The translations under genes were made by a program, and so were the position numbers. Of a stretch of DNA of 13,271 bases, positions 2-13,187 are shown one piece after another; position 1 is the first letter of the stretch, and each line of letters opens with the position of its first letter. The stretch comes from Clostridia bacterium (GTDB lineage: Bacteria > Bacillota > Clostridia > Christensenellales > Aristaeellaceae): positions 1-13,271 of the forward strand of contig JAUNDF010000063.1 of assembly GCA_030526225.1 (NCBI GenBank), given 5' to 3'. The notes below the pieces were generated by a model that was not told where the DNA came from, made no database searches, and was given only the letters and a program-made list of their open reading frames with translations.

Positions 2-57
2 CCTACCCCCACCCCGACACCCACACCTACGCCTACACCTACCCCCACCCCGACACC
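2..57 (+). repeat. Direct repeat inside the Pro/Thr-linker coding sequence: an identical 20-mer cctacccccaccccgacacc at 2-21 and 38-57 (period 36 nt).
   Basis: Both copies were read directly from the sequence. The surrounding 1-160 is ACC/CCC/ACA/CCG-rich and encodes PTPTP... low complexity. Confidence 0.8.
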
Positions 58-2254
58 TGTGCCCACCGAAACGCCGGTGCCCACACCGGTGGTGGTGTAT
101 ACCGAGCCCACTGATACCCCCGAGCCCACCGCCACACCCACGCCCGCACCCACCGCCCTGCCTGATGGCTGGCTGAGTGCCGACGAGGCCGCCGCTGCCG
201 GGTACACCTGGAAGCAGGCTGACAACGGCGTGGTCATTACGGGCTACAGCGGCACGGCAAGCAAGCTGACCATCCCCGGCAATATTGACGGCATGGCGGT
301 TACGGAAATCGGCGGTCATGCCTTCTCCGGCAACACCGCGCTCACCGGGGTGGATATCCCCGGCAGTGTGGAGCGCATCGGCGAGCTGGCCTTCGGCGGC
401 TGCATCAAGCTGGAGAATGTCAAGCTGGGGAAGGGTCTGCAGCACATCGGCGAGTGTGCCTTCTTCGGCACCGCCATCGAGAGCATCCGCATCCCCGGCA
501 GCGTGCAGACCATGGGCATCAACCCCTTTGCAAGCTGCAGCAGGCTGAACAAAATCACCGTGGATGCAGACAACAAATCCTTCCGGGTCATCGCTTCCGT
601 GCTGTTTAACACCGATAACAACACCCTGATTTTCTACCCCGCAGGGGAACAGCGCACAAGCTACACCGTCCCCGTGGGCACACAGGCCATCGGCGATTCC
701 GCCATGATGATCAACCCCTATCTGGAAACCGTCATCATCCCCGACACGGTGACCGCTATCGGCAGCATGGCGCTGGATAACCCCGCCATCAAAACCGTGT
801 GGCTGCCCAAGGGGCTGCAGACCGTGGGCGACAGCGCCTTCAACGCCCTCAGCGAGCTGCACATCCACGGCGCAAAGGGCAAGGAAGCCAAAACCGCCCC
901 CACCGCCCAGCTGCTGGAAGCAACCAGCTTTGTCATCACCGACACCAAGGCAGCCGTCACCGTGCCCAAGGGCATCAGCATCACCGATGCCGAAGCACAG
1001 ACCCAGGGCTTCCACTACGATGGCAGCCGCCTGACCCGCTATTCCGGCAGTGAAAAGAATGTGGAGGTCCCCGCGGTCATCGGCAATACCATCATCACCA
1101 CCATCGGCGAGGGTGCCTTTAAGGATTGCACCGATGTGAAGACCATCGCCCTGCCGGATACCATTGCCATCATTGAGGATGATGCCTTCCTCGACAGCGG
1201 TATTAAGGAGCTGACATTGCCCGCAAGCTGTACAACGCTTACAGACCACGCTCTGCGCGGCAAGAACTTTACCAAGATCGCAGTTGCAGAAGAAAATCCA
1301 ACTTTCTCTGCGGACAAAAACGGCATATTGTTTAATAAATACAAATCAAGGTTGGTCCGCTATCCTGCGGGGAAAGGCGGCAGTTACACCATCCCTGAAA
1401 ACATTTTTGTCATTAAGCCATATGCATTTGAGGGTGCCACTATTTCCAGCCTAACCTTGAGCAAAAACACGCGTAACATTTAGCCCAATGCATTGATTAG
1501 CATGCCCAAGCTTACCAAGATTACCGTGCACAAGGACAACAAAGTCTATGTGGTTGAGGACAATGTTCTCTATGAGAAAGACGGTCACAAACCGGTCAAA
1601 ATTCTAGCCAAAGCCATTAAGGCAGGCATGACTGTTCAGTTTGGCCGCTACGAGCAGGATGCCAACGAAGCCAACGGCCCTGAAGTCATTGAATGGCAGG
1701 TGCTGGAGGTTAAGGGCGGCAAGGCGCTGGTGATTAGCAAGTATGGCCTGGATGCACAGCCGTATAATACATCAGGAACGGTTGTCACTTGGGAAAATTG
1801 CACCCTGCGCACATGGTTGAACAATGACTTCCTGAATAAAGCATTCACCCACGCAGAACAAGCAGCCATTGAGTTGACCAATGTGGATAACAGCAAGAAA
1901 CAGGGTTATGACAAGTGGACTACCAATGGCGGCAATAATACGCTTGATAAGGTATTCCTGCTAAGCTATGCAGAAGCAAACAAATATTTCGGGGTAACAA
2001 GGGAGAATAGTAACAACACAAAATCTCGTGTACATCCCACAGACTATGCAGTAAAACAAGGCGCGTATGCTAGCAGCAGCGAAACATCCGAAGGCGCGAA
2101 AGCCGGGTGGTGGTGGCTGCGGTTGCCCGGCAGCTCTCAGGGCTATGCCGCGTACGTGAGCGCCGACGGCTCTCTCCGCGACAGCGGTGTCAGCCGCGGT
2201 TCTGGTTGTATTCGCCCCGCTTTCTGGGTCAATCTGGAATCTGGAATCTTCTAA
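2..2254 (+). CDS. Surface protein, 5'-truncated by the window edge: Pro/Thr-rich linker, BspA-type leucine-rich repeats (LRR_5) and a C-terminal DUF6273-like domain. Read through one in-frame TAG at 1481-1483. Under table 11 it splits into 2..1483 and 1493..2254.
   Basis: The frame is open from base 2 and encodes (PT)n, so the GTG at 59 is not the true start. LRR_5-type repeat motifs recur (ITGYSG..LTIPGNIDG..VTEIGGHAF, IPGSVERIGELAFGGC, IPDTVTAIGSMAL, LPDTIAIIEDDAF). The repeat unit spans the TAG in the same frame: LTLSKNTRNI[TAG]PNALISMPKLTKITVHKDNKVYVVEDNVLYEKDG. The DUF6273-like part (about 1631-2245) reads FGRYEQD..IEWQVL..TWENCTLRTWLNNDFLNKAF..VFLLSYAEANKYF..GWWWLRLPG..IRPAFWVNLE. The terminator is TAA at 2252-2254. 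Confidence 0.75.
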
Positions 2255-2350
2255 TCTTTAATCGAATGCGATTGAAATCAGGGGACGGACGAGGGTTGAC
2301 AGCAATCTTGAATCAAAAAAGCTGCAACTGTATCAAACACCGGCATGAAA

Positions 2351-2403
2351 GGGCTTCGCGGTGCAGCCGCGCCGAAGGCGCCTTTTTCCCGCCGTAAGGC
2401 GGG
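2351..2403 (+). terminator. Candidate intrinsic terminator or leader hairpins between the LRR gene and the PP2C operon.
   Basis: GCGCC-GAA-GGCGC (about 2369-2381) is followed by CTTTTT (2382-2387). A perfect CCCGCC-GTAA-GGCGGG hairpin follows at 2388-2403. The stems are short and no energy calculation was done. Confidence 0.4.
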
Positions 2404-2455
2404 TCCGATTATGTATGATTTTTCAATATTCATAACAGTTGAAAGGAGGCAACCT

Positions 2456-3250
2456 ATGCAATACCAATTAACCGTATTCCAGGCCAGCCATCAGGGTGCG
2501 CGGGAATACCAGCAGGACCGGATTGCAGCAACGCCGCAGGATGCGCAGCGGGGGATGCTGACGGTGCTGTGTGATGGCATGGGCGGCATGAAGGACGGTG
2601 AGCGCTTTGCATAGACCGGCTGTGAAAGCATGCTGCGTACCTTTAATGCATTGCCCGCCGGCGGGGACATGGCCGATACCTTGTACACCTGCTACAAGCG
2701 GGCCAATGAGGAAGCGCTGAACATCCAGAGCGAGGATGAACGCGAGGCGGGGGGCAGCACCATCACCGCCGTGTATATCCGCGGGGATGAATGCGTGTTT
2801 CTTTCCTCCGGTGACAGCCGCATCTACCTGTGCCGGGGCGGCAGCCTGATTCAGCTTTCCCGCGACCAAAACATGGGCGCGCTGCTGGATGTGCGGGCCG
2901 GGCTGGGGGATATTGACTGGTCCATGGCAAAATCCGCCATGGGCAGAAGCTCCCTCACCGGGCATCTGGGCATGAATGGCGGCCAGCCCTGTGACATCAG
3001 CCCATAGCCCTTCCGCCTTGTGCGGGGGGATGTGCTGCTGCAAATGTCGGATGGCGTGTACGGCACGTTGTCGGATGCGGAGATTCTTGCCTGCATGCAG
3101 GGCGCGGAAAACCCGGCGGAGAGCATCATCGCCGCCACCATCGGCAAAAAGAAACCCCGGCAGGATAACTGCTCGGTGATTGTAACCTATGTGCAAAGCC
3201 CTTATTTCCAGGGTGAAAAAATCACCCGGCACAAGAGAAAAAGGAGGTAA
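2456..3250 (+). CDS. PP2C-family Ser/Thr protein phosphatase (soluble), read through two in-frame TAG codons (2612-2614, 3005-3007). Under table 11 it fragments into 2456..2614, 2630..3007 and 3020..3250, all in the same frame.
   Basis: The SD GAAAGGAGG at 2441-2449 lies 6 nt before ATG 2456. PP2C motifs are spread over all three fragments in the correct order: REYQQD, CDGMGG, GGSTITAV, GDSRIYL, MSDGVYG, QDNCSVIV. The terminator is TAA at 3248-3250. Confidence 0.8.
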
Positions 3251-3256
3251 TGTACC

Positions 3257-4558
3257 TTGGCAAATGAAACGAATACTACATTCAACAACTCTAACCCAAA
3301 TGAAACGGACGAAGAATTTGACACTATCGTCTAGAAAGACGATGGTAAGGAAACTCCGGTCAACGAAACAGAATCAGGTGACGGAAATGATGCTGCAACT
3401 ACAGATATAACAACGGACGAAGCAACAAAAGATGCAGCGAACGAAACAACGAATGAAACCGCAGATGAAACGACAGACGGAGAAAACAACAAGAAATCCG
3501 AAGAACAGGTGACACAAGATAACAATTTCGTTTCAATCTCGGGAGGAGGCTTGACCGTAACAGGGCAGGATAACCAGCAAGCAGACAAACCTGCCGAAGG
3601 AGAACAGGTGACCACCGAGGCTGTTGTTCAAGCTGCCCCCATCGAAGCCCCCGCCAAAACCGGCGGCTTCAATGTATGGCCGCTGGTGATTGTGCTGCTG
3701 ATTGCGGCCCTGGGCGCAGCCGCCTTTGTGCTGTGGAAGAAGCGGCGCGCCGTGCCTGTTATCAGCGATGTGGGTGCCACGGAAGCGGGCGGCGATGTGG
3801 GCATTGGCATCCGCGTGGGCGGCGCCCAGACCATCGGCAAGCGCAGCGATCAGGAGGATTCCCTGTGCTACTCCAACTGGCAGAATGTGGCCGAGTATAA
3901 CGAGCGCGGCCTGCTGGCAGCGGTATCCGACGGCATCGGCGGGCTGGAAAAGAGCGAGCTGGCCAGCCAAACAGCCATGCGCAACATGCGGGTGCGCTTC
4001 CTGAAGCAGGACCCCGCCGTGGCCCCGGCAGACCGCCTGCTGGAGCTGACCGGTGCCGCCCAGCAGGATGTGCTTGCCCTGAACCATGCATTGCCCCAGG
4101 GCAGCAGGGTGATGGGTGCCACGCTGGTCAGTGTGCTGATTCAGCGCAACCTGCTGTGGCTGTCCTCTGTGGGCGACAGCCGCATCTACCTGTACCGCGC
4201 CGGTGCCATGCTGCCCCTCAACCGGCCCCACGTATTCGGCAAGGAGAACCGGGAGGATGCGGTGCTCACCGGCGGTGGCCGTCCCTCCGATGCACGACAG
4301 GATAAAAAGCTCACCGCCTACCTCGGGCAGGAAAACCTGCGCAAGGTGGACCGCAACGTGAACCCCATCAAGCTGATGCCCAGCGACCGTGTGCTGCTGA
4401 TGAGCGACGGCGTGTTCGGCACCGTGGGCGAGGACGAGATGGTCCGCTCCATGGGCCTTAGCCCCGACTTGGCCGCCAAGGACATCATCCGCATGGTGGA
4501 GGCCGCCAACAAACCCCATCAGGATAACGCCACCGTGGTGGTTATCGCACTGGATTAA
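3257..4558 (+). CDS. Membrane-anchored PP2C-family Ser/Thr phosphatase: acidic Thr/Asn/Glu-rich N-terminal tail, one TM helix and a PP2C domain. The start is uncertain. The core 3509..4558 is solid. The longer model starts at TTG 3257 and reads through TAG 3332-3334.
   Basis: PP2C motifs are present: GKRSDQEDS, SDGIGG, GATLVSV, GDSRIYL, MSDGVFG, HQDNATVVVI. The TM helix VWPLVIVLLIAALGAAAFVLW (about 3674-3736) is followed by KKRR, placing the PP2C domain in the cytoplasm. The SD AAAAGGAGG (3239-3247) lies 9 nt before TTG 3257, and the frame stays open into the PP2C domain except for one TAG. Alternative starts are GTG 3509 (no SD) and TTG 3551 (GGAGG at 3542-3546, only 4 nt away). The terminator is TAA at 4556-4558. 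Confidence 0.7.
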
Positions 4559-4571
4559 AGGAGGCAGCAAC

Positions 4572-5840
4572 ATGAAAAGATTCTTTGCCTTGCTGCTGGC
4601 CGTGCTGCTGCTGGCACTGCCGGTGCTGGGTCTGGCAGCAACCTATCAGGATGTGCGCGACAGCGTGGTGCGCATTTATGCTATCGGTTCGTATTACGTC
4701 CCCCAAGAAAATAGATATATAAAGGTTCCTTGGGTAGGCTCTGCCTTTGCCGTGGGCAAAAAGGGCGAGAAGGTGCAGTACTTTGTTACCAACCACCATG
4801 TAACGGGCAAGATTGGCGAATTGGATATTATTCCTGGAAGTGGCGGCATATTGGGCCAGCTGGAGAGCGTGGAGCTGTATGTTGTATATGATGATGTCAC
4901 CAACATGCTTGGTGCCCGTGTGGTGGGATGCCATGACACTGCTGACCTCGCAGTGGTGAGGCTTAATAGTGCCACGGATGTCCGCAAGCCCGTTACCTTC
5001 CATGACCCCAATGCAGATTTAAACAGCTATCAGGGTGAAGCAGTGTACGCATTGGGCTTCCCTGTCGATGGCGATGTTTTCATGAATGCAGACGCACAGG
5101 AATCATTGGCTTCTGCACCTTTTCAGGTGACGGTAAACAATGGCATAATACAGCGCATCCTACCTTCATCAGATACATTCGGCGGCGAAGTAGTTCAACA
5201 TGGTGCTGACATATCCGGCGGCAATTCCGGCGGTCCCCTTGTTACGGCGGACGGCAAGGTCATCGGCGTTAATACTGCCGGTGCGATGGAAGGCAAATAC
5301 TATAGCGCCTTGTCCTACCGCGAAGTACTGAAGATGCTGGATGATTATAATGTCCCCTACCAGACAGGCGGAGCTGGGCTGATGGGCAGCTCCCCGGTGA
5401 CATGGATTATTGCCGGTGTGCTGGCTGTGGCAGTTATCGTGGTGGTGGTGGTGCTGGTGCGCCAGAACAAGAAGGGCACCGCTGTGCCCGATGCCCCTGC
5501 GGCAGTCGCTCCCGCAGCGGATGGTGAAAAGCGTACCCTCCGCGGCGAAACGGGCGCCCTTGCCGGCAAGAGCTTTGTGCTGACCTCCGGCAAGCCGCTG
5601 GTGCTGGGCCGTGACCCGGGCCAGTGCAATGTGCTGTTCCCCAAGGATACGAAGAAGGTCAGCCGCGTTCACTGCACCATCACCCTCACCGGCGGCAAGG
5701 TTACCGTGACCGACAACCGCTCCACCTGCGGCGTGTTGATTGACGGCAACCCCATCCCCGCCGGCGGCACAAAGACATGGCACCGCGGTCAGGTGCTTCA
5801 GATTGGCTCCGATGCCGAACAGTTTACCCTGCATTCCTGA
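4572..5840 (+). CDS. Secreted trypsin-like (S1/Trypsin_2-type) serine protease domain, a TM helix and a C-terminal cytoplasmic FHA domain.
   Basis: The SD AGGAGG at 4558-4563 lies upstream of ATG 4572. The signal peptide reads MKRFFALLLAVLLLALPVLGLAA. Catalytic-triad contexts are TNHHV (His), DLAVVRL (Asp) and GGNSGGPL (Ser codon 5226-5228). The TM helix is WIIAGVLAVAVIVVVVVLV (about 5401-5460). FHA motifs read LVLGRD...SRVHC...NRSTCGVLIDGNPI. The terminator is TGA. Confidence 0.9.
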   Translation: MKRFFALLLAVLLLALPVLGLAATYQDVRDSVVRIYAIGSYYVPQENRYIKVPWVGSAFAVGKKGEKVQYFVTNHHVTGKIGELDIIPGSGGILGQLESVELYVVYDDVTNMLGARVVGCHDTADLAVVRLNSATDVRKPVTFHDPNADLNSYQGEAVYALGFPVDGDVFMNADAQESLASAPFQVTVNNGIIQRILPSSDTFGGEVVQHGADISGGNSGGPLVTADGKVIGVNTAGAMEGKYYSALSYREVLKMLDDYNVPYQTGGAGLMGSSPVTWIIAGVLAVAVIVVVVVLVRQNKKGTAVPDAPAAVAPAADGEKRTLRGETGALAGKSFVLTSGKPLVLGRDPGQCNVLFPKDTKKVSRVHCTITLTGGKVTVTDNRSTCGVLIDGNPIPAGGTKTWHRGQVLQIGSDAEQFTLHS

Positions 5841-5876
5841 TGAAGCATTATCACATATCAATAGGAGGAAATATTC

Positions 5877-6425
5877 ATGAGCAAGCAGTATTTCGACCAG
5901 AGCTACATTTCCGGCGTAACCGACGAAACCATGGCCGCCACCATGGTGGATGCTACCATGGTGGATGACGACGAATCCACCGAGCCCATCACCAACGAAA
6001 CGGAGAATGACGGCTACGGCGAAACCGAGGTTCTCCGCCCCGCAGGCTTTGAGGATGCCCGCCGTGACCCCGTGGTGGGCTGGCTGGTGTGCATCTCAGG
6101 CACAGAGCTGGGCGCCGATTTCCGCATCCACGAGGGCTGGAACACCATCGGCCGCGACCCCTCCAACGACATTGTCATCAACGACCCTGCCGTATCTGCC
6201 GACAAGATGTGCACTCTGCTGTACGATGACCCCACCAAGGCATTCATCATCGCCCGGGGCAACGGCCGCAATCCCTCCCGCATCAACGGCCGCCCGCTGG
6301 TCAGCGAAAAGGAGCTGGCACCCTTCGATCACCTGACCATCGGCAACACCGAGCTGATTTTCGTCCCCCTGTGCGGCGAACAGTTCTCCTGGGAAAGCTT
6401 CCGCAAGGACAACGAAAAGGCATAA
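5877..6425 (+). CDS. Small soluble FHA-domain protein with an acidic, Thr-rich N-terminal tail.
   Basis: The SD AGGAGG at 5863-5868 lies 8 nt before ATG 5877. The FHA core reads GWLVCISGTELGADFRIHEGWNTIGRDPSNDIVINDPAVS...NPSRINGRPL...LTIGNTELIF. The terminator is TAA. Confidence 0.9.
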   Translation: MSKQYFDQSYISGVTDETMAATMVDATMVDDDESTEPITNETENDGYGETEVLRPAGFEDARRDPVVGWLVCISGTELGADFRIHEGWNTIGRDPSNDIVINDPAVSADKMCTLLYDDPTKAFIIARGNGRNPSRINGRPLVSEKELAPFDHLTIGNTELIFVPLCGEQFSWESFRKDNEKA

Positions 6426-6461
6426 CCATGACCCTGCGCAACATTGCATAAAGGAGAGTGA

Positions 6462-8303
6462 TTGTGCCCCATGAGCGAAATGTGCTACCGGTGCATGACC
6501 GAAACCCTTGAAAACGGCACCTGTACCCGATGCGGCAAGCCGAGGTACGTGCCCGAGCCCTCCAATGCCGATGCACTGCCTGTGGGCACCCGGCTGGATA
6601 ACGGCAGCCCCGTGGTGGGCGCCATCCTTGGCCGGGGCGGCTTTGGCATTACCTATGTGGCGCTGGATACGGAAGTGAATCCCCCGCAGAAAATCGCCCT
6701 GAAGGAATACATGCCCCGCCACATGGCCACCAGAAGCGGTCTCAATCTGCAGGTGGACCCTGCCCATCAGGAGGAATACGAGCATTCCCTGCGCGCCTTC
6801 GCCCGGGAAAGCAGCGTGATCGACCGCCTGAAGGAGCACCCCAACATCGTGAAGGTGTTCTATTCCTTTAGGGAAAACAACACCGCCTACTACGGCATGC
6901 AGTTCCTGGAGGGCATGAGCCTGAAGGAATGGATTAAAAAGAGCGGCAAGCCCATGTCCGGCAAGGAAGCATGCATGCTGCTCAATCCCATCATGGATGC
7001 GCTGGCCTACACCCACAAGCAGGGCCTGCTGCACCGTGACATCAGCCCCAACAACATCTTCCTGTGCGGCACCGGCCAAAAGGACGTAACCGCCATGACC
7101 CCCAAGCTGATTGACTTCGGTGCCGCCCATGCCTATGTGGGCGATTATACCAAATCTCTTGCGCTGATTAAGACCAAGGGCTTCACCCCGGTGGAGCAGA
7201 TTCTCTACGGCGCCGAGTGTCAGGGCTCCTGGACGGATGTGTACGCCTTCTGCGCGGTGTTCTACTACGCCATCACCGGCCGCAATCTGCCCGACTCCAA
7301 GGATCGCTACATCGACAACGCCACCTTCCTCACGCCCAATGAGCTGGGGGCAAAAATCCCCAAGGAGGCCGAGAACGCCCTGCTCTCCGGTCTGGCCATC
7401 AACTACAAGGAGCGCACCCAGAACATGGCCGAGCTGCAGGAGAAGCTGTGCAAGGCCTTCGGGATTGCGCCCTACCACTACACCAAAATGGTGGAAAGCA
7501 CCCCGGTGGATCCCGACCCCGGCCCCGCGCCTGTCCACACACCGGTACCCAGACCCGTCGAAGCGCCGGTGCAGCACGAGGCCCCTGCGGCGGTCAAATC
7601 TGCCGACACCCGCATGCGGGACAGAATCCTTGGGGGCATGCTGGAGCTGATTATCTGCTACGCCGCGGCCTTCCTGCTGGTGCCCGGTTGGCAGGCACTG
7701 CTCTACGGCCTTGCCGGCATGACGCTGCTCAACACCGTGCTGTGCTCTGTGGGCGGCGGCGGTACCCTTGGCATGCGCCTCAGCCGCCAGCGGCTGGTGG
7801 ACCAGTCCGGCCGTGTGCCCAGCGTGGCGGTATCCCTTGCATACAGCCTGCTGACGGCGTTCTTCCCCTTCTCCGTGCTGGATTGCCTTGTCAACAGCGG
7901 CGACAAGCCCTGCTGGCGTGAAAAGATGCTGGCGGTGCAGACCGTTTCCTCCGGGGAGAAGGCGCCTGAGGCTCCCGCTGCCGCTGCCCAGAAGAAGCCC
8001 GTCGGAAAGGCTTGGCTGGAGACGGCCGCCGGTGAACGGATTGACGTGGAGAACGGCACGCTGGTCACCCGCCACGGCAAGGACTGCAAGGGCTACAAGC
8101 ATACCATCATCCTCAAGGATGAAATGGTATCCGGCAAGCATTGCGAATTCTATCAGGCAAGGGGCGGCTGGTACGTGCAGGATCTGTACTCCACCAACCA
8201 CACCTACATCAACGGCTCTGCCATTCCCCCCGCGGCTGAGGTTCCCCTTTCCGACGGTACGCGGGTGACCATCGGCGGCACCGACATGACCTTCCATTGC
8301 TGA
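6462..8303 (+). CDS. Hanks-type Ser/Thr protein kinase with an N-terminal CxxC..CxxC zinc ribbon, a central RDD-like multi-TM module and a C-terminal FHA domain.
   Basis: The zinc ribbon CYRC...CTRCG lies at 6483-6533. Kinase motifs are GRGGFGITY (from 6630), ALKEY, HRDISPNN (catalytic Asp 7038-7040) and DFG (7113-7121). The RDD-like part reads RILGGMLELIICY...GTLGMRLSRQRLVDQSGRVPS. FHA motifs read SGKHC...DLYSTNHTYINGSAI. The start is TTG 6462 (GGAG at 6453-6456) or ATG 6471. The terminator is TGA. Confidence 0.9.
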   Translation: MCPMSEMCYRCMTETLENGTCTRCGKPRYVPEPSNADALPVGTRLDNGSPVVGAILGRGGFGITYVALDTEVNPPQKIALKEYMPRHMATRSGLNLQVDPAHQEEYEHSLRAFARESSVIDRLKEHPNIVKVFYSFRENNTAYYGMQFLEGMSLKEWIKKSGKPMSGKEACMLLNPIMDALAYTHKQGLLHRDISPNNIFLCGTGQKDVTAMTPKLIDFGAAHAYVGDYTKSLALIKTKGFTPVEQILYGAECQGSWTDVYAFCAVFYYAITGRNLPDSKDRYIDNATFLTPNELGAKIPKEAENALLSGLAINYKERTQNMAELQEKLCKAFGIAPYHYTKMVESTPVDPDPGPAPVHTPVPRPVEAPVQHEAPAAVKSADTRMRDRILGGMLELIICYAAAFLLVPGWQALLYGLAGMTLLNTVLCSVGGGGTLGMRLSRQRLVDQSGRVPSVAVSLAYSLLTAFFPFSVLDCLVNSGDKPCWREKMLAVQTVSSGEKAPEAPAAAAQKKPVGKAWLETAAGERIDVENGTLVTRHGKDCKGYKHTIILKDEMVSGKHCEFYQARGGWYVQDLYSTNHTYINGSAIPPAAEVPLSDGTRVTIGGTDMTFHC

Positions 8304-8317
8304 AAAGAGGTATTTAT

Positions 8318-9886
8318 ATGATGAAGAAGATTGCGGCACTTGTGCTTGCACTGTGCATGCTGACCATCTGCTTCGGCGCCTTTGCCGCGGGCAGCAACAG
8401 CACCATGAGAATCCTCGGCGGCTCCATCGCCCCGGATAACACCACCACCCTCAACGTGTTTATCCCCGTGACCACACCTGTCAGCGCTGATGAGCTGGAT
8501 GTGCAGGTGGACGGCACCCCCGTGACCATCACCCAGCTGACCGGCGTGCCCACCACCTGGGTGGTTCTGCTGGACAGCTACAGCGAATGGGGCCCTGAGC
8601 GCCTGGACCACATGAAGGATGTGGCGCTGGAAATCATCTCCAAGAACATGGGCAGTGCCGATAACGGTCTGGTCCTGACCGGCGGCAGCGCCTGGAAGAA
8701 CAGCAAGGATCTGCAGTTGGGCAACATCGGCACGGTGAAGGAGGCCATCAAGGCATTTGACGGCAAGAAGTCCGGTGTCACCCCCAATGTGCCTGCGCTC
8801 CATTTCCTCACCGATATGTGGGCCGTTGAGTACATCAACCCCCGCGTGTGTCTGGTGGTCATCAGTGACGGTGCCACGGTGGCCAAGTCCAGCTGGGACA
8901 GCGTGCAGGAAAAGCTGACCAGAACGGATGCCGCCCTGTACGGCATTGCGCTGGTGAAGAACAACGAAAAGCACAAGACCGATGCCCTCCGGACCGTGGC
9001 CGAAAGCAGTCAGGGCGGCAGCTTCTACCGCTATGACAAGAGCGTAAAGACTGAGGATGCGCAGAGCTTCTGCATCAACACCGCCGCCAACATTGTCACG
9101 GCCGAGGCCTGCCAGATGCGGCAGCTGAGCATTCCCGGCACTGTGTTTACCGCCGTACCCAGCCGCTACACCATCGCCCTGAAGAACTCCAATCCTCCGC
9201 TGGATGCCGAATATGTGCTGACCGAGAACGACAAGAAGGGCTACCGCATCGGTGAACCGGCCGAGGGCGAAGAAGCAACGGAAAACGCAGGCGGCGTCAT
9301 CGGTGCAAACGTGCCTGAGGCAGAAGATCCCTGGTACACGAAGACCGAATACCTGGTGGTGGCCGGTCTGGCGCTGGTGCTGGTCATTCTGCTGATTGTG
9401 CTGGTGGTATCCGGCAAGAAGAAGAAGGCCAAGGCTGCCGCTGCCGCCGCTGCTGCTGCCGCAGAAAAGGCAAAGCAGGAGCAGGCCGCTGCAACCGAGG
9501 TCAATGCACCCTCTGCCTTTGTGGCGGATGATGACGGCGGTGCCACTGAGGTTTTGACGCCTCCCGCCGGTGCCCGCCCCACCTGCCGCCTGCAGCTGGC
9601 ACAGGAGAACAGCAGCAACGTGTACACCGCCGAATTTGCCAAGAATCTGCTGGTTGGCCGCAGCTGCCAAAAGGCTGACCTGACCGTGTACCCCGAGGAC
9701 AAGAAGATTTCCGGCCTCAACAGCGAGTTCTCCTTCCACAATGGTGTCATGACCCTGAAGGACCGCGGCTCCACCAACGGCACCTTCCTCAACGGCTCCA
9801 AGCTTACCGGCGAGGTGCGCGTCAATCAGCATGACGTTGTGAAGATGGGCACCACCCGGTTCCGCGTTACCTGGACGGTACTGTAA
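8318..9886 (+). CDS. Signal peptide, a vWA-like extracytoplasmic domain, a TM helix, a Lys/Ala-rich juxtamembrane tract and a C-terminal FHA domain.
   Basis: The SD AAGAGG at 8305-8310 lies 7 nt before ATG 8318, which I prefer over the track's TTG 8297. The signal peptide reads MMKKIAALVLALCMLTICFGAFA. vWA-like strands are WVVLLDSYSE and CLVVISDG, but the MIDAS motif is not a canonical DxSxS, so the vWA call is moderate. The TM helix is YLVVAGLALVLVILLIVLVV (about 9350-9410). FHA motifs read LLVGRS...ISGLNS...DRGSTNGTFLNGSKL. The terminator is TAA. Confidence 0.8.
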   Translation: MMKKIAALVLALCMLTICFGAFAAGSNSTMRILGGSIAPDNTTTLNVFIPVTTPVSADELDVQVDGTPVTITQLTGVPTTWVVLLDSYSEWGPERLDHMKDVALEIISKNMGSADNGLVLTGGSAWKNSKDLQLGNIGTVKEAIKAFDGKKSGVTPNVPALHFLTDMWAVEYINPRVCLVVISDGATVAKSSWDSVQEKLTRTDAALYGIALVKNNEKHKTDALRTVAESSQGGSFYRYDKSVKTEDAQSFCINTAANIVTAEACQMRQLSIPGTVFTAVPSRYTIALKNSNPPLDAEYVLTENDKKGYRIGEPAEGEEATENAGGVIGANVPEAEDPWYTKTEYLVVAGLALVLVILLIVLVVSGKKKKAKAAAAAAAAAAEKAKQEQAAATEVNAPSAFVADDDGGATEVLTPPAGARPTCRLQLAQENSSNVYTAEFAKNLLVGRSCQKADLTVYPEDKKISGLNSEFSFHNGVMTLKDRGSTNGTFLNGSKLTGEVRVNQHDVVKMGTTRFRVTWTVL

Positions 9887-9893
9887 CAATACA

Positions 9894-9935
9894 CGCCGCC
9901 GCATGGCTGTGCTGTGCGGCGGTAAATTCCTTTTA
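9894..9935 (+). terminator. Candidate rho-independent terminator after the vWA-FHA gene.
   Basis: A perfect 8-bp stem pairs CCGCCGCA (9896-9903) with TGCGGCGG (9915-9922) around an 11-nt loop. A T-rich stretch TTCCTTTTAT (about 9927-9936) follows. It begins 8 nt after the TAA at 9884-9886. Confidence 0.55.
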
Positions 9936-9958
9936 TCATTGAAAGCGGGTGTTATTGT

Positions 9959-10864
9959 ATGTACAACAACCCTCAGCAAACGCTGGCAGGGCTTTGGGGC
10001 TTTGTTGCCGGCTATTTCGCGGTGATTGCCGTCATCAGTGCGGCCATTACGGTGCTGACCATCATCGGCTTGTGGAAGACCATTGCCAAAACAGGGGAGC
10101 CCGGCTGGAAGGCCCTCATTCCGATCCTGAATGAATATGTCCTGTGCGACCGCTGCTGGGAAAAGAACGCGTTCTGGGTGATGCTGGGCGTGGCCCTGGG
10201 CTGCGGTGTGCCCGTGGTGAACATCATCTGCAGTATTGCAATGGTGGTGCTGTGGGTGATGCTGTGCATCCGCATCAGCGCTGCCTTCGGCAAAGAGCTG
10301 CCCTTCGCCATCGGCATGATTTTCCTGCCCCCGGTGTTCTTTATGATTCTGGGCTTTGGCAGCAGCCGCTACATCGGCCCCTCCAGCTTCAAAATCCCCA
10401 CCCCCGTGCCGGAATACGGCAACAAGGCCAGGGCTGATTACAGGCCCGCAGTGGATGACATGGACAAAACCGTCCCCGCACCCCGTCCTGTCATGCCGCC
10501 CCCTGCCCCTGTGCAAGTCCCCGCGCCTGCTCCCGCAGAGCAGCACTATCATGTGCTGACGGTTGAAATGAAAAATGTGCACAGCGGCACCGTGTACAAA
10601 AAGTCCGTCAAGGGCAGCAAGCTGAATGTGGGCCGCAGTGCATCCAAGTCCCAGCTGGTCATCGCCGATGATGCCAAGCTGTCCGGTGCGCATATTCAGC
10701 TGAAGTGCAAGGACAACACCCTGTACATCACCGACCTTGAAAGCACCAACGGCACCGCCGTCAACGGCAAAAAGCTGACCCACACCGCCCCGCTGAAGCC
10801 CACCGACACGGTGACCATCGGCAAGGCACAATACACCATAAAATGGAAGTACAGCCTGAAATAA
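9959..10864 (+). CDS. DUF5684-like polytopic membrane domain, a Pro-rich linker and a C-terminal FHA domain.
   Basis: The sequence GLWKTIAKTGEPGWKALIPILNEYVL...ISAAFGKELPFAIGMIFLPPVFFMILGFGSSRY matches my recollection of the DUF5684 family signature. FHA motifs read LNVGRS...LSGAHIQL...DLESTNGTAVNGKKL. The SD before ATG 9959 is weak. The terminator is TAA. Confidence 0.85.
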   Translation: MYNNPQQTLAGLWGFVAGYFAVIAVISAAITVLTIIGLWKTIAKTGEPGWKALIPILNEYVLCDRCWEKNAFWVMLGVALGCGVPVVNIICSIAMVVLWVMLCIRISAAFGKELPFAIGMIFLPPVFFMILGFGSSRYIGPSSFKIPTPVPEYGNKARADYRPAVDDMDKTVPAPRPVMPPPAPVQVPAPAPAEQHYHVLTVEMKNVHSGTVYKKSVKGSKLNVGRSASKSQLVIADDAKLSGAHIQLKCKDNTLYITDLESTNGTAVNGKKLTHTAPLKPTDTVTIGKAQYTIKWKYSLK

Positions 10865-10885
10865 GGCGCGACAAGGAGGAGAACC

Positions 10886-13119
10886 ATGTCCAGCAAACTT
10901 AGACAAACCACCGCTCTCCTGCTTGCCCTTGTGCTGCTGATGGCAGCCATGCCCGCCGGGGCAGAGGTAAAGCTGTGGCGGTGCCAATATGATCAAACAG
11001 TTAATTTTGACACGAAATGCAGTGAGTGCGGAAGAAAAAAGGAGTATGCTATAATCAATCCCGCACAAGCGGTTATATCTGTTGATTTAAGAAAACGTAT
11101 GGCATATGAGCGATACGATATGAGTTATACCGGTCGTATCGATAGCTCATGGGAAGAATTAGGTTTAGAACCTGTTCCGTTGCATTATACAAAAGGCTAT
11201 ACATACTGCAAGCTGAAGGATGGAACCATAGAAATCTATAGAATAGATATTTCTTTCGGCGAAGAAAACTGTACCATTCCAGAAACCATTGATGGATATA
11301 AGGTTACTGCAATAGGTGACAATGCACTAGAATAGGGCTATGACCTGCAGACTGTTACCATCCCTGCTAGTATAACCTATATTGGAGGAAACCTACTCTG
11401 CAATGCAGATGAATTGAAAACAATCATTATTGATGGCGAGTCACAGTATCTTTAGGTTGTGGACGGCGTTTTGTTTACAAAGACAGATAAGCGTTTGGTG
11501 TGCTATCCGCCCAAGAAAGAAAACAAGCATTATTCAATTCCTGAAGGGACAAGGATATCGGTTCGACAGCGTTTGCCTATGCGCAGTTTTCTTCCTTGAC
11601 TATCCCTGACAGTGTGAAGGTGCTAGAGGATAACGTGTTTTATGAATGCGATAAGTTGGGCAGTGTTACTCTCCCAAGCAGTGTAGAGGCAATTGGTACG
11701 AATCCGGGATATGGTGACAAAGATTACAGAAGGAACAGAAGGACCAAAAGGCTGCCTATCAAGGTTGATAAGAAAAATCCATATTTTGAAACTGTCGATA
11801 ATTCACTGATTTCAAAAGTAGACAAGCGATTGATTAGTTGCTGGCAGACGGGTTCGTGTACAGTTCCTGATAGAACTGTAACTATCGGTGAAAAAGCATT
11901 TGCTTAGACTAAAGTTACAGAAGTTATTCTGCCTGATTCGGTCAAGAGCATAGAAAACAAGGCTTTCGAACGATGTGAACAGCTTACTGAAATCAGACTT
12001 CCGGAAAATTTGGAAAGCATAGGAGAATATGCATTTGCATCCTCCGGTTTGACATCTGTCACCTTTCCAACATCACTGCAAACAATTGGCGACAGGGCCT
12101 TCAGAGGAAGCAAGCTAAAGGAAATAGATTTTGGTGAAGGTTCTCCCCAATTGGGTGTTTAGGTATTTTCGTATAATGATAATTTAATAAATGTAGAAAT
12201 ACCCGGGAATATTAATCAATTGCCATTTTGTACCTTTAACAGTTGTGAAAATTTGGAACAGGTTTTGATACGCGAAGGCGTGAAGAACATTGGCAATCAG
12301 GCATTTTATTCTTGTGTGAGTCTGAAGAGCGTTATCATTCCTGACAGTGTCATAGGTAACAATATTTTTCAGGACTGTCCAAATGTGATTGCCACGGTAA
12401 ATGAAGGATCTTATGCGGAGTAGTATTGCAAAAACAATGGTATAAAGTATGTGCTTAACACAGAGTATGTACCTGCTGTGTTGGAAAATGCGCCCTACAA
12501 GCTGAATCTTCCCATTGCTGATGGTCACTATATAATGAAAATGATATATGGTGACAAATGCACAATCGAAATGGTAGATGTTCCATAGGGAGCACATGAA
12601 GCATGGATACGGACAACAGAAGGATATGACTATAGCTATGTTTATGGCAATTAGTTATATTTCGAATCGAATGAGTTCATGAAAGAGGGCACAAGCTTAG
12701 CATATGTGCTTGTGTATGATGACAACGATAATGTGTTGTATTCGTATCCTCTTGAGATTACGGCAACAAGCCCTAATGGAACGTTTGATGTAGCTGTTGT
12801 CAGCGTTGAACTGTTTGATGGGCCAACAGAAGAAGCAAAATGGGTCCGCATACAATGCAAAGCAGATTCTCGGGATGTGCAAAAAGCAATAACCTCGGGA
12901 GAAATCAAATCTCTTTCATGTAACGGTGGATTTGCGTTCACTGCTTTTGCGAGCAAGCCATATCTTGGTTAGGATAATAATTTGATTTTTTAGTATCAAC
13001 CGTCTTCAGATGAGGGAACTTTCAAGGTTGTGATGGATGTTTTTGCCAAAGGCTACAGCAATGCCGAAGTTACAGTGGAATACACTGTGAAAGATGGTGA
13101 ACTTACCTTCACCCCCTAA
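10886..13119 (+). CDS. Secreted BspA-type LRR (LRR_5) protein with an uncharacterised C-terminal beta-rich region. It is read through nine in-frame TAG codons and needs one -1 frame change near 11551, which may be an indel, an assembly error or pseudogenisation.
   Basis: The SD AAGGAGG at 10873-10879 lies upstream of ATG 10886. The signal peptide reads MSSKLRQTTALLLALVLLMAAMPAGA. LRR_5 motifs continue across the first five TAGs (11333-12421): AIGDNALE[TAG]GYDLQTVTIP, SQYL[TAG]VVDGVLFTKTDKRLVCYP, IGEKAFA[TAG]TKVTEVILPDSVKSIENKAFERC, LGV[TAG]VFSYNDNLINVEIP, EGSYAE[TAG]YCKNNGIKY. After the last four TAGs (12586, 12652, 12970, 12991) only the open frame continues. The frame is 2 up to 11551 and 1 afterwards. 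Frame 1 stays open, apart from TAGs, to TAA 13117-13119. I checked this codon by codon for 11881-12720 and 12961-13119 and relied on the supplied ORF track elsewhere. Confidence 0.65.
11540..11600 (+). other. Frameshift site within the LRR gene (frame 2 to frame 1, net -1).
   Basis: Frame 2 reads YSIPEGT and then degenerates (RISVRQRLPMRSFLP) to TGA 11597-11599. Frame 1 from 11551 reads KDIGSTAFAYAQFSSLTIPDSVKVLEDNVFYEC, which is the expected LRR_5 continuation. Frame 1 is closed upstream by TGA 11542-11544, so the switch must lie within 11545-11553. Confidence 0.75.
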
Positions 13120-13187
13120 GTCTCCCCCCACCTCTGCACCCCCTTCCCACCGCCACCCTACAACCACCCCCAAAGGAGGCAAAAACC

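Follow-up and report, generated by a model that had tools for sequence, protein, structure and literature searches.

In-frame TAG codons in a signaling gene cluster of an uncultured Clostridia bacterium point to translation of UAG as sense

Has UAG ceased to be a stop codon in the uncultured bacterium from which contig JAUNDF010000063.1 was assembled? This contig, part of the Clostridia metagenome-assembled genome (MAG) GCA_030526225.1, was analyzed over 13,271 nucleotides, a stretch hereafter called the window, which is a complete contig (13,272 bp in the NCBI record) and contains nine genes (A to I), all on the + strand; genes D, E, and H correspond to the NCBI proteins MDO4484478.1, MDO4484479.1, and MDO4484482.1 of the 'Clostridia bacterium' MAG. 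TAG occurs within the reading frame of four of the nine genes, at 13 sites, and the original prediction, made from the sequence alone, was that amber is decoded here as a sense codon. This view was supported by TAG codons in a sister lineage, the ratio of nonsynonymous to synonymous substitution rates (dN/dS), the gene ends, the absence of TAA and TGA from the coding frame, and the lack of a local signal. TAG is almost certainly translated as an amino acid in the window contig and in the sister lineage, and a lineage-wide reading of UAG as sense in this uncultured Clostridia bacterium is likely.

All 13 TAG triplets were present where they had been predicted and all lay in the working frame, those from 1481 to 11453 in frame 1 and those from 11905 to 12991 in frame 0. 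Over the extent of the gene models, 12–13 TAG but neither TAA nor TGA fell in the working frame, whereas the two off-frames held 36 TAG, 79 TAA, and 240 TGA (319 TAA or TGA against none). The TGA at 11597 belongs, as proposed, to a frame that is abandoned at a one-nucleotide shift near 11548. Pfam domains bridge the TAG codons at 1481 (LRR_5 and DUF6273), at 2612 and 3005 (PP2C), and from 11333 to 12421 (LRR_5), in agreement with the claim that the expected domains continue past eight of the sites. The joined product of gene A matched LRR_5 (3.7e-49) and DUF6273 (2.7e-29), and that of gene I matched LRR_5 (1.8e-67). Homology continues downstream of TAG in three of the four TAG-bearing genes; the TAG of gene C is without such support.

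Relatives of the window were found in metagenomes. A scan of GTDB representatives gave no relative above 39% identity, and look-ups of the exact proteins yielded nothing beyond short Logan contigs that match the window exactly. A metagenome scan returned one syntenic sister contig, L034, and a protein search a longer strain variant of it, L049. Each stems from a further dataset of its own; the two agree at 98.9% identity over 8.4 kb and encode proteins with 42–70% amino-acid identity to those of the window, in the same gene order. Gene A could be aligned to its L034 ortholog over 717 aa, across TAG 1481, and gene B to its own (56% identity, 271 aa) through both of its TAG codons. At TAG 1481 the L034 residue is Gly, in an LRR profile column with G at 0.76 and E at 0.07; at TAG 2612 it is Ala, in a variable family column (R, A, Q, K); and at TAG 3005 it is Glu, in a column with V, E, R, and K.

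The sister lineage has in-frame TAG codons of its own. Within the homology alignments, L034 and L049 carried 12 distinct in-frame stops, every one of them TAG, and none coincided with a TAG of the window. They were located in the ortholog of the PP2C gene B, in the ortholog of the protease gene D, and in several DUF6273 genes; the TAG of the protease ortholog (L034 6930, equivalent to L049 3005) stands where window gene D has Gly. No interrupted ortholog was found among about 45 loci of standard-code relatives. In-frame TAG is therefore a trait common to the window and L034/L049, seen neither in the loci of these relatives nor in L050 (GCA_028694175.1, JAQUTX010000013.1, 546–13404), a syntenic outgroup. 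L050 is the closest standard-code contig with the same operon; its kinase shares 38% identity and its genes are intact.

TAG codons also turn over within this clade. L034 has TAG where the nearly identical L049 has GAG, and comparison of paralogs gave GCG-TAG-CCC against GCG-GAG-CCG and TCA-TAG-AAG against TCA-CAG-AAG. A single-base change, with GAG or CAG as the alternative codon, thus suffices to create or remove a TAG. The 98.9% identity of the two sister strains holds from the PP2C gene onward; they differ in an abrupt divergence upstream of it (L034 1–4298 against L049 1–372), where different DUF6273 cassettes occupy the same place, in what looks like a variable surface-protein locus, and in gene G, where in-frame indels of 6 and 18 bp fall in an Ala/Lys-rich linker.

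Could the interrupted genes simply be pseudogenes, with TAG codons that are ordinary nonsense mutations? TAG is the stop most easily reached by mutation, accounting for 44–56% of the one-step nonsense mutations available from the codons of these genes, and gene I is frame-shifted as well. Because of this share, the probability that decay would leave only TAG is about 1e-4 to 5e-4 for the window, and the value of (1/3)^13, about 1e-6, given in the original prediction was some two orders of magnitude too small. However, when the window, L034, and L049 were taken together, 25 of 25 in-frame stops were TAG (P ~1e-7 to 1e-8 under decay), alongside a single frame shift. Between the window and L034, dN/dS downstream of TAG was 0.28–0.42, compared with ~0.37 for genes C, E, and F, which are uninterrupted, and for the segments ahead of TAG; it was ~0.28 in gene A after TAG 1481 and alike before, between, and after the TAG codons of gene B. 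Sequence after TAG is under the same purifying selection as uninterrupted genes, and the reading frames have been kept at a synonymous divergence of about 1 per site. The same TAG has moreover been retained in both sister strains and across paralogs, and TAG never serves as a terminator. Decay is a highly improbable explanation for these genes.

Errors of assembly, polishing, or sequencing would be another trivial source of stop codons, and one of these may underlie the frame shift near 11548; nothing else specific pointed in this direction. Logan contigs of run SRR24915835 matched window positions 2234–6163 and 9724–10953 at 100% identity and reproduced the TAG codons at 2612, 3005, and 3332, with gene B identical in contig L001 and gene H in contig L002. 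The sequence is therefore the same from two assemblers, the phenomenon recurs in two more datasets from a related organism, and the changes are limited to the coding frame, which leaves artifacts extremely unlikely.

The original prediction had set apart five TAG codons after which only the open frame continues. Four of these, in the C-terminal part of gene I, were upheld: this part (231 codons, 39% GC) contains no TAA or TGA, for which the chance, from a TAA/TGA density of 5–8% in the off-frames, is ~1e-5. The fifth, TAG 3332 in gene C, is probable and hinges on translation from TTG 3257, a probable start with AGGAGG 9 nucleotides upstream; were the gene to start at GTG 3509 or 3608, this TAG would be untranslated. 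The frame of gene C is free of TAA and TGA from 3251 to 3608, a region in which both other frames are full of stops, and the transmembrane and PP2C part of the protein is 68% identical to the L034 ortholog.

Gene I differs in composition from the remainder of the window. GC content is about 60% throughout, apart from two short stretches near 1250–2000 and 3000–3750 and a sharp fall from ~60% to 39% at 10750–13120, which covers exactly this gene. TAG makes up 1.2% of its codons and 0.1–0.3% elsewhere. In its second part (11548–13116, 39% GC) the coding frame contains seven TAG and no other stop, against 36 and 47 stops in the other frames. At the shift, GGG ACA AGG ATA TCG reads as one A lost from ACA AAG GAT ATC, either a genuine lesion or a mistake of assembly, at a site that lies outside the stretches matched by Logan contigs. 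No close homolog of gene I was found anywhere (≤41% identity). Its N-terminal signal peptide and Cys motif resemble those of the secreted DUF6273 proteins of the sister lineage, so that gene I hardly has the appearance of a mis-join; it may have come from a donor with the same code. In this clade, secreted proteins carry a common N-terminal leader in which a signal peptide stands before the zinc-ribbon-like Cys motif W-[KR]-C-x(10-13)-C-x2-C-G-[KR], ahead of either LRR_5 or DUF6273 domains (window 10886–11050; L049 8738–8900 and 10948–11100; L034 2234–2365).

If TAG is sense, genes must end elsewhere, and the original prediction that all nine visible ends are TAA (seven) or TGA (two) was correct. 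Together with the 13 genes of L049, none of 22 genes ended in TAG. Such a count is partly circular where TAG is assumed to be sense. It stands nonetheless, because the proteins end where those of relatives end and because, of 112 ends of orthologs from standard-code relatives, 21 are TAG (19%; P ~0.01 for none in 22). TAA predominates among the window terminators despite a GC content of 60%, a preference that may be linked to the code change, while the terminators of L049 are mostly TGA (8 of 13). The ten genes of L050 end in TGA (seven) or TAA (three) and never in TAG, which is not significant alone (P ~0.12) and would fit a lineage nearly rid of TAG before reassignment.

Site-specific recoding of the SECIS or PYLIS type was considered and rejected, as no conserved RNA structure or motif lies beside TAG. 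No structure common to the sequences next to the TAG codons was detected (mean folding z-score 0.14), nor any shared k-mer or motif, nor an Rfam match to a local recoding element, and the base after TAG and the flanking bases vary. Decoding is therefore independent of a local signal.

Which amino acid would be inserted was addressed with DUF6273, PP2C, and LRR_5 profiles built without any sequence of the recoded clade (472 domains from the 150 best representatives, 40 sequences, and ~1,000 segments, respectively), from which emission probabilities were taken at 15–16 TAG columns. Since gene I has no homolog above about 40% identity, only its repeat-consensus columns were usable, and the protease column was dropped as a variable, gappy loop. 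Glu obtained a posterior of 0.90–0.95, followed by Ser (0.05–0.09), and the log-likelihoods over 15 columns were −39.8 for Glu, −52.6 for Lys, and −58.8 for Gln. In a DUF6273 column with 70% Glu and 0.8% Gln among the 472 domains, TAG is kept in three diverged paralogs (GCG-TAG-CCC) and a fourth has GCG-GAG-CCG; another TAG-bearing DUF6273 column is 71% Asp and 14% Glu. In controls, most amino acids were correctly recovered in 82–100% of trials, Cys and His far less reliably, and columns of true Gln were called Glu 3% of the time. The TAG columns were more variable than average (mean entropy 2.2 against 1.7 nats), and these may be young TAG codons at lax sites or the mark of a non-standard residue, by Pyl or ambiguous decoding.

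From these profiles, our best guess for the best-fitting standard amino acid would be Glu, rather than the Gln implied by the original prediction; nothing fits well. No amino-acid assignment is claimed, because the calibration showed that even Glu fits poorly. Gln fits much worse than Glu, although the sample is small and the exclusion not a strong one. Gly, suggested by the LRR 'IG' column, the protease loop, and one DUF6273 column, was rejected because of the conserved Glu and Asp columns and was ~17 nats worse than Glu. That UAG has been fully reassigned to glutamate, making this the first natural bacterial lineage of its kind and the code new to prokaryotes and phages, is a tentative proposal, possible and still doubtful.

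The poor fit of all standard residues could also mean that every TAG encodes pyrrolysine (Pyl), in a bacterial counterpart of the archaeal Code 34 with pylT (tRNA-CUA), pylS, and pylBCD constitutive. Some bacteria of the class Clostridia are Pyl users, the mechanism requires no local signal, and the TAG columns are mostly polar, variable, and surface-like. Yet a long-lived TAG where 70% of the family has Glu, and a second one where 71% has Asp, would be odd for a bulky lysine derivative, the likelihood for Lys is poor, and no methyltransferase or pyl gene occurs in the ~42 kb of sequence covered from this clade. In archaea, genome-wide TAG as Pyl is proven; in bacteria, Pyl was found confined to a few enzymes with TAG otherwise a stop, and Code 34, whose origin was tied to methylamine methanogenesis, is stated not to have been observed there (Kivenson et al., bioRxiv 10.1101/2024.09.30.615893). 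Pyl at all TAG codons is rather unlikely on this balance.

The lack of a well-fitting residue, together with the rarity of TAG (0.1–0.3% of codons outside gene I) at mostly variable sites, might instead reflect loss of release factor 1 (RF1) without a dedicated tRNA, such that near-cognate tRNAs (Gln, Tyr, Lys, Trp, Glu) insert a mixture of residues. Engineered RF1-free Escherichia coli reads UAG ambiguously in this manner. Nine TAG codons among the 744 of gene I would, however, be costly if decoding were inefficient, and at one conserved Glu column TAG has survived three paralog divergences; we regard a mixture of residues as quite improbable.

The remaining question is whether a cell or a mobile element is being read. 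Amber recoding is established in phages of gut and oral bacteria, where TAG encodes Gln, with metaproteomic confirmation (PMC9523058), and a recoded phage, prophage, or other mobile element using code 15 in a standard-code host would account for in-frame TAG. BspA-type LRR and DUF6273-like domains occur in phages, one paralog comparison opposes TAG to CAG, and the low-GC gene I looks foreign. Nevertheless, searches of the window, L034, and L049 against PHROGs and Pfam, of the kind the original prediction had called for, detected no capsid, terminase, portal, tail, integrase, or replication gene, the PHROGs matches being to generic domains only, including a weak 'Hoc-like' match (2e-12). IMG/VR contained no relative, and GenBank phages and PLSDB plasmids gave only generic kinase-domain matches (≤38% identity). 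The order PP2C-PP2C-protease-FHA-kinase-FHA is syntenic in standard-code Clostridia MAG contigs such as L050, where the cluster adjoins a two-component system and a flavoprotein; relatives of the kinase lie on contigs of up to 243 kb; and L049 continues into a Peptidase_C11 gene and then the start of priA (first 86 codons only, without TAG). A chromosomal origin is favored for the window contig because of the lack of phage-like features, the synteny, the long contigs of relatives, and the run of L049 into priA. With GC at 60% and Gln 19 nats worse than Glu, a phage-type element is unlikely, and the code 15 precedent invoked in the original prediction probably does not apply, given the absence of phage features, membership in a Clostridia MAG, and synteny with chromosomal clusters. 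The remark that amber recoding would be unusual in high-GC, host-like signaling genes holds for the same reasons.

The favored reading, in which UAG is sense throughout a cellular lineage, would thus mean that this lineage no longer uses UAG as a stop, that its ribosomes read every TAG as an amino acid, and that its genes end solely in TAA or TGA. The mechanism would be the mirror image of bacterial UGA reassignment: RF1, the sole factor reading UAG, would be absent or inactive, termination at UAA and UGA would fall to RF2, and a tRNA with the anticodon CUA would insert the amino acid.

Several observations weigh against this reading. The TAG codons are concentrated, with nine of the 13 in the single low-GC gene I, and this gene, being frame-shifted, could be decaying. 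The Glu assignment is weak, since a log-likelihood of −39.8 falls in the lowest 0.3–0.5% of values for real Glu codons of the same proteins; the shortfall persists even among variable columns, and no other standard amino acid does better. MAG binning can err, and an extrachromosomal element is possible. The ~42 kb of clade sequence includes no ribosomal or universal gene, which makes 'genome-wide' an extrapolation, and ARAGORN found no tRNA of any kind in the window, L034, and L049, a total too small to decide the matter.

Of the genes listed in Table 1 with the TAG sites, B to H form a dense phospho-threonine signaling cluster that is kept across Oscillospiraceae and Lachnospiraceae MAGs. Downstream of two PP2C phosphatases, five successive proteins (4572–10864) each end in an FHA domain. 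As the contig begins within gene A, inside a (Pro-Thr)n linker (PTPTPT..., window 2–60), the N-terminal part of this surface protein is missing. Very long antisense open reading frames lie opposite genes F to H (6096–8351 and 8204–11068 on the − strand, of 751 and 954 codons) and are probably a by-product of GC-rich codon usage, not genes.

Table 1. Genes, in-frame TAG codons, and frame shift in the window (asterisks in peptides mark TAG).
Feature	Position	Strand	Description
Gene A	2..2254	+	PT-rich linker, LRR_5 repeats, DUF6273; 5' end cut by contig start; TAA 2252; carries TAG 1481
TAG in gene A	1481..1483	+	'IG' column of LRR_5 repeat, NI*PNAL
Gene B	2456..3250	+	PP2C phosphatase (Pfam PP2C_2, PP2C); TAA 3248; carries TAG 2612 and TAG 3005
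TAG in gene B	2612..2614	+	PP2C, GERFA*TGCE
TAG in gene B	3005..3007	+	PP2C, DISP*PFRL
Gene C	3257..4558	+	Acidic N-terminal tail, transmembrane helix, PP2C domain; TAA 4556; carries TAG 3332
Probable in-frame TAG, gene C	3332..3334	+	Codon 26, low-complexity tail, without homology support
Gene D	4572..5840	+	Trypsin-like protease and FHA (Pfam); TGA 5838; without TAG in the window
Gene E	5877..6425	+	FHA protein (Pfam); TAA 6423
Gene F	6462..8303	+	Ser/Thr kinase and FHA; TGA 8301
Gene G	8297..9886	+	Membrane protein, weak VWA match, C-terminal FHA; TAA 9884
Gene H	9959..10864	+	DUF5684 and FHA; TAA 10862
Gene I	10886..13119	+	Secreted LRR_5 protein, ~744 codons, 39% GC; nine in-frame TAG; TAA 13117
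TAG in gene I	11333..11335	+	ALE*GYDL
TAG in gene I	11453..11455	+	SQYL*VVDGVLF
Frame shift in gene I	11546..11551	+	1 nucleotide, frame 1 to frame 0
TAG in gene I	11905..11907	+	KAFA*TKV
TAG in gene I	12160..12162	+	LGV*VFSY
TAG in gene I	12421..12423	+	GSYAE*YCKNNGI
TAG in gene I	12586..12588	+	C-terminal part, without Pfam domain
TAG in gene I	12652..12654	+	C-terminal part, without Pfam domain
TAG in gene I	12970..12972	+	C-terminal part, without Pfam domain
TAG in gene I	12991..12993	+	C-terminal part, without Pfam domain

All natural stop reassignments reported in bacteria concern UGA (Shulgina and Eddy PMC8629427; Parks et al. PMC13462651; gTranslate preprint); those of UAG are from phages, organelles, eukaryotes, and, since 2024–25, Pyl-using archaea. 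Literature searches up to 2026 turned up no report of UAG reassigned in a bacterium, nor any paper naming the accessions of the run, the analysis, or the proteins considered here. If the lineage-wide reading is true, nature too, and not just engineered E. coli, would be able to do without RF1. The lineage, high in GC and of a free-living type, would let one study in nature the onset of a code change in a bacterium whose genome is neither reduced nor extremely AT-rich; what its cells have to do with TAG-recoded phages, and with genes arriving by horizontal transfer, would become a question as well. Under table 11, gene callers fragment these genes, yielding three pieces for the PP2C gene B and about ten for gene I, so that such genomes are under-annotated and may drop from reference sets. 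The trait would then have gone unnoticed because pipelines label the affected genes pseudogenes and quality filters reject the genomes.

Among known systems, the code 15 phages (crAss-like, Lak, and the clades of Borges et al. 2022) share with the window the codon, a similar gut-type habitat, and the presence of TAG in ordinary genes. They differ in that the window has no phage genes and holds a chromosomal-type signaling operon in a Clostridia MAG, that Gln fits its TAG columns poorly, and that its TAG codons are not limited to a late-gene block. As in archaeal Code 34, TAG would be sense at every occurrence in the cell of a prokaryote, and it is rare, scattered in diverse genes, and free of local signals. 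The Code 34 organisms, however, are archaeal methanogens with Pyl machinery and a single release factor that cannot be lost, whereas this is a bacterium with two TAG codons in conserved acidic columns and no Pyl genes in the ~42 kb covered. Eukaryotic codes with UAR as Glu (peritrich ciliates, code 30; Blastocrithidia nonstop, code 31) match the best fit obtained here, UAG as Glu, but are nuclear and reassign UAA too, which is the commonest terminator in the window (7/9 ends).

The closest likeness is to the bacterial UGA codes, namely code 4 (UGA as Trp; Mycoplasmatales, Hodgkinia, Zinderia, and some Eggerthellaceae) and code 25 (UGA as Gly; Absconditabacteria and Gracilibacteria). In those lineages, as is likely here, a stop has become sense across a cellular lineage; as in the window, it lies inside conserved genes, is never a terminator, and is common to relatives, and the expected logic would be the same, i.e., loss of a codon-specific release factor combined with a cognate tRNA. 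The differences are that the codon here is UAG, so that the dispensable factor would be RF1 rather than RF2, and that GC content is 60%, with nothing suggesting a reduced genome. By analogy, the reassignment would resemble the code 4 and code 25 type transposed to UAG, and every feature of that type that could be tested was found in this clade.

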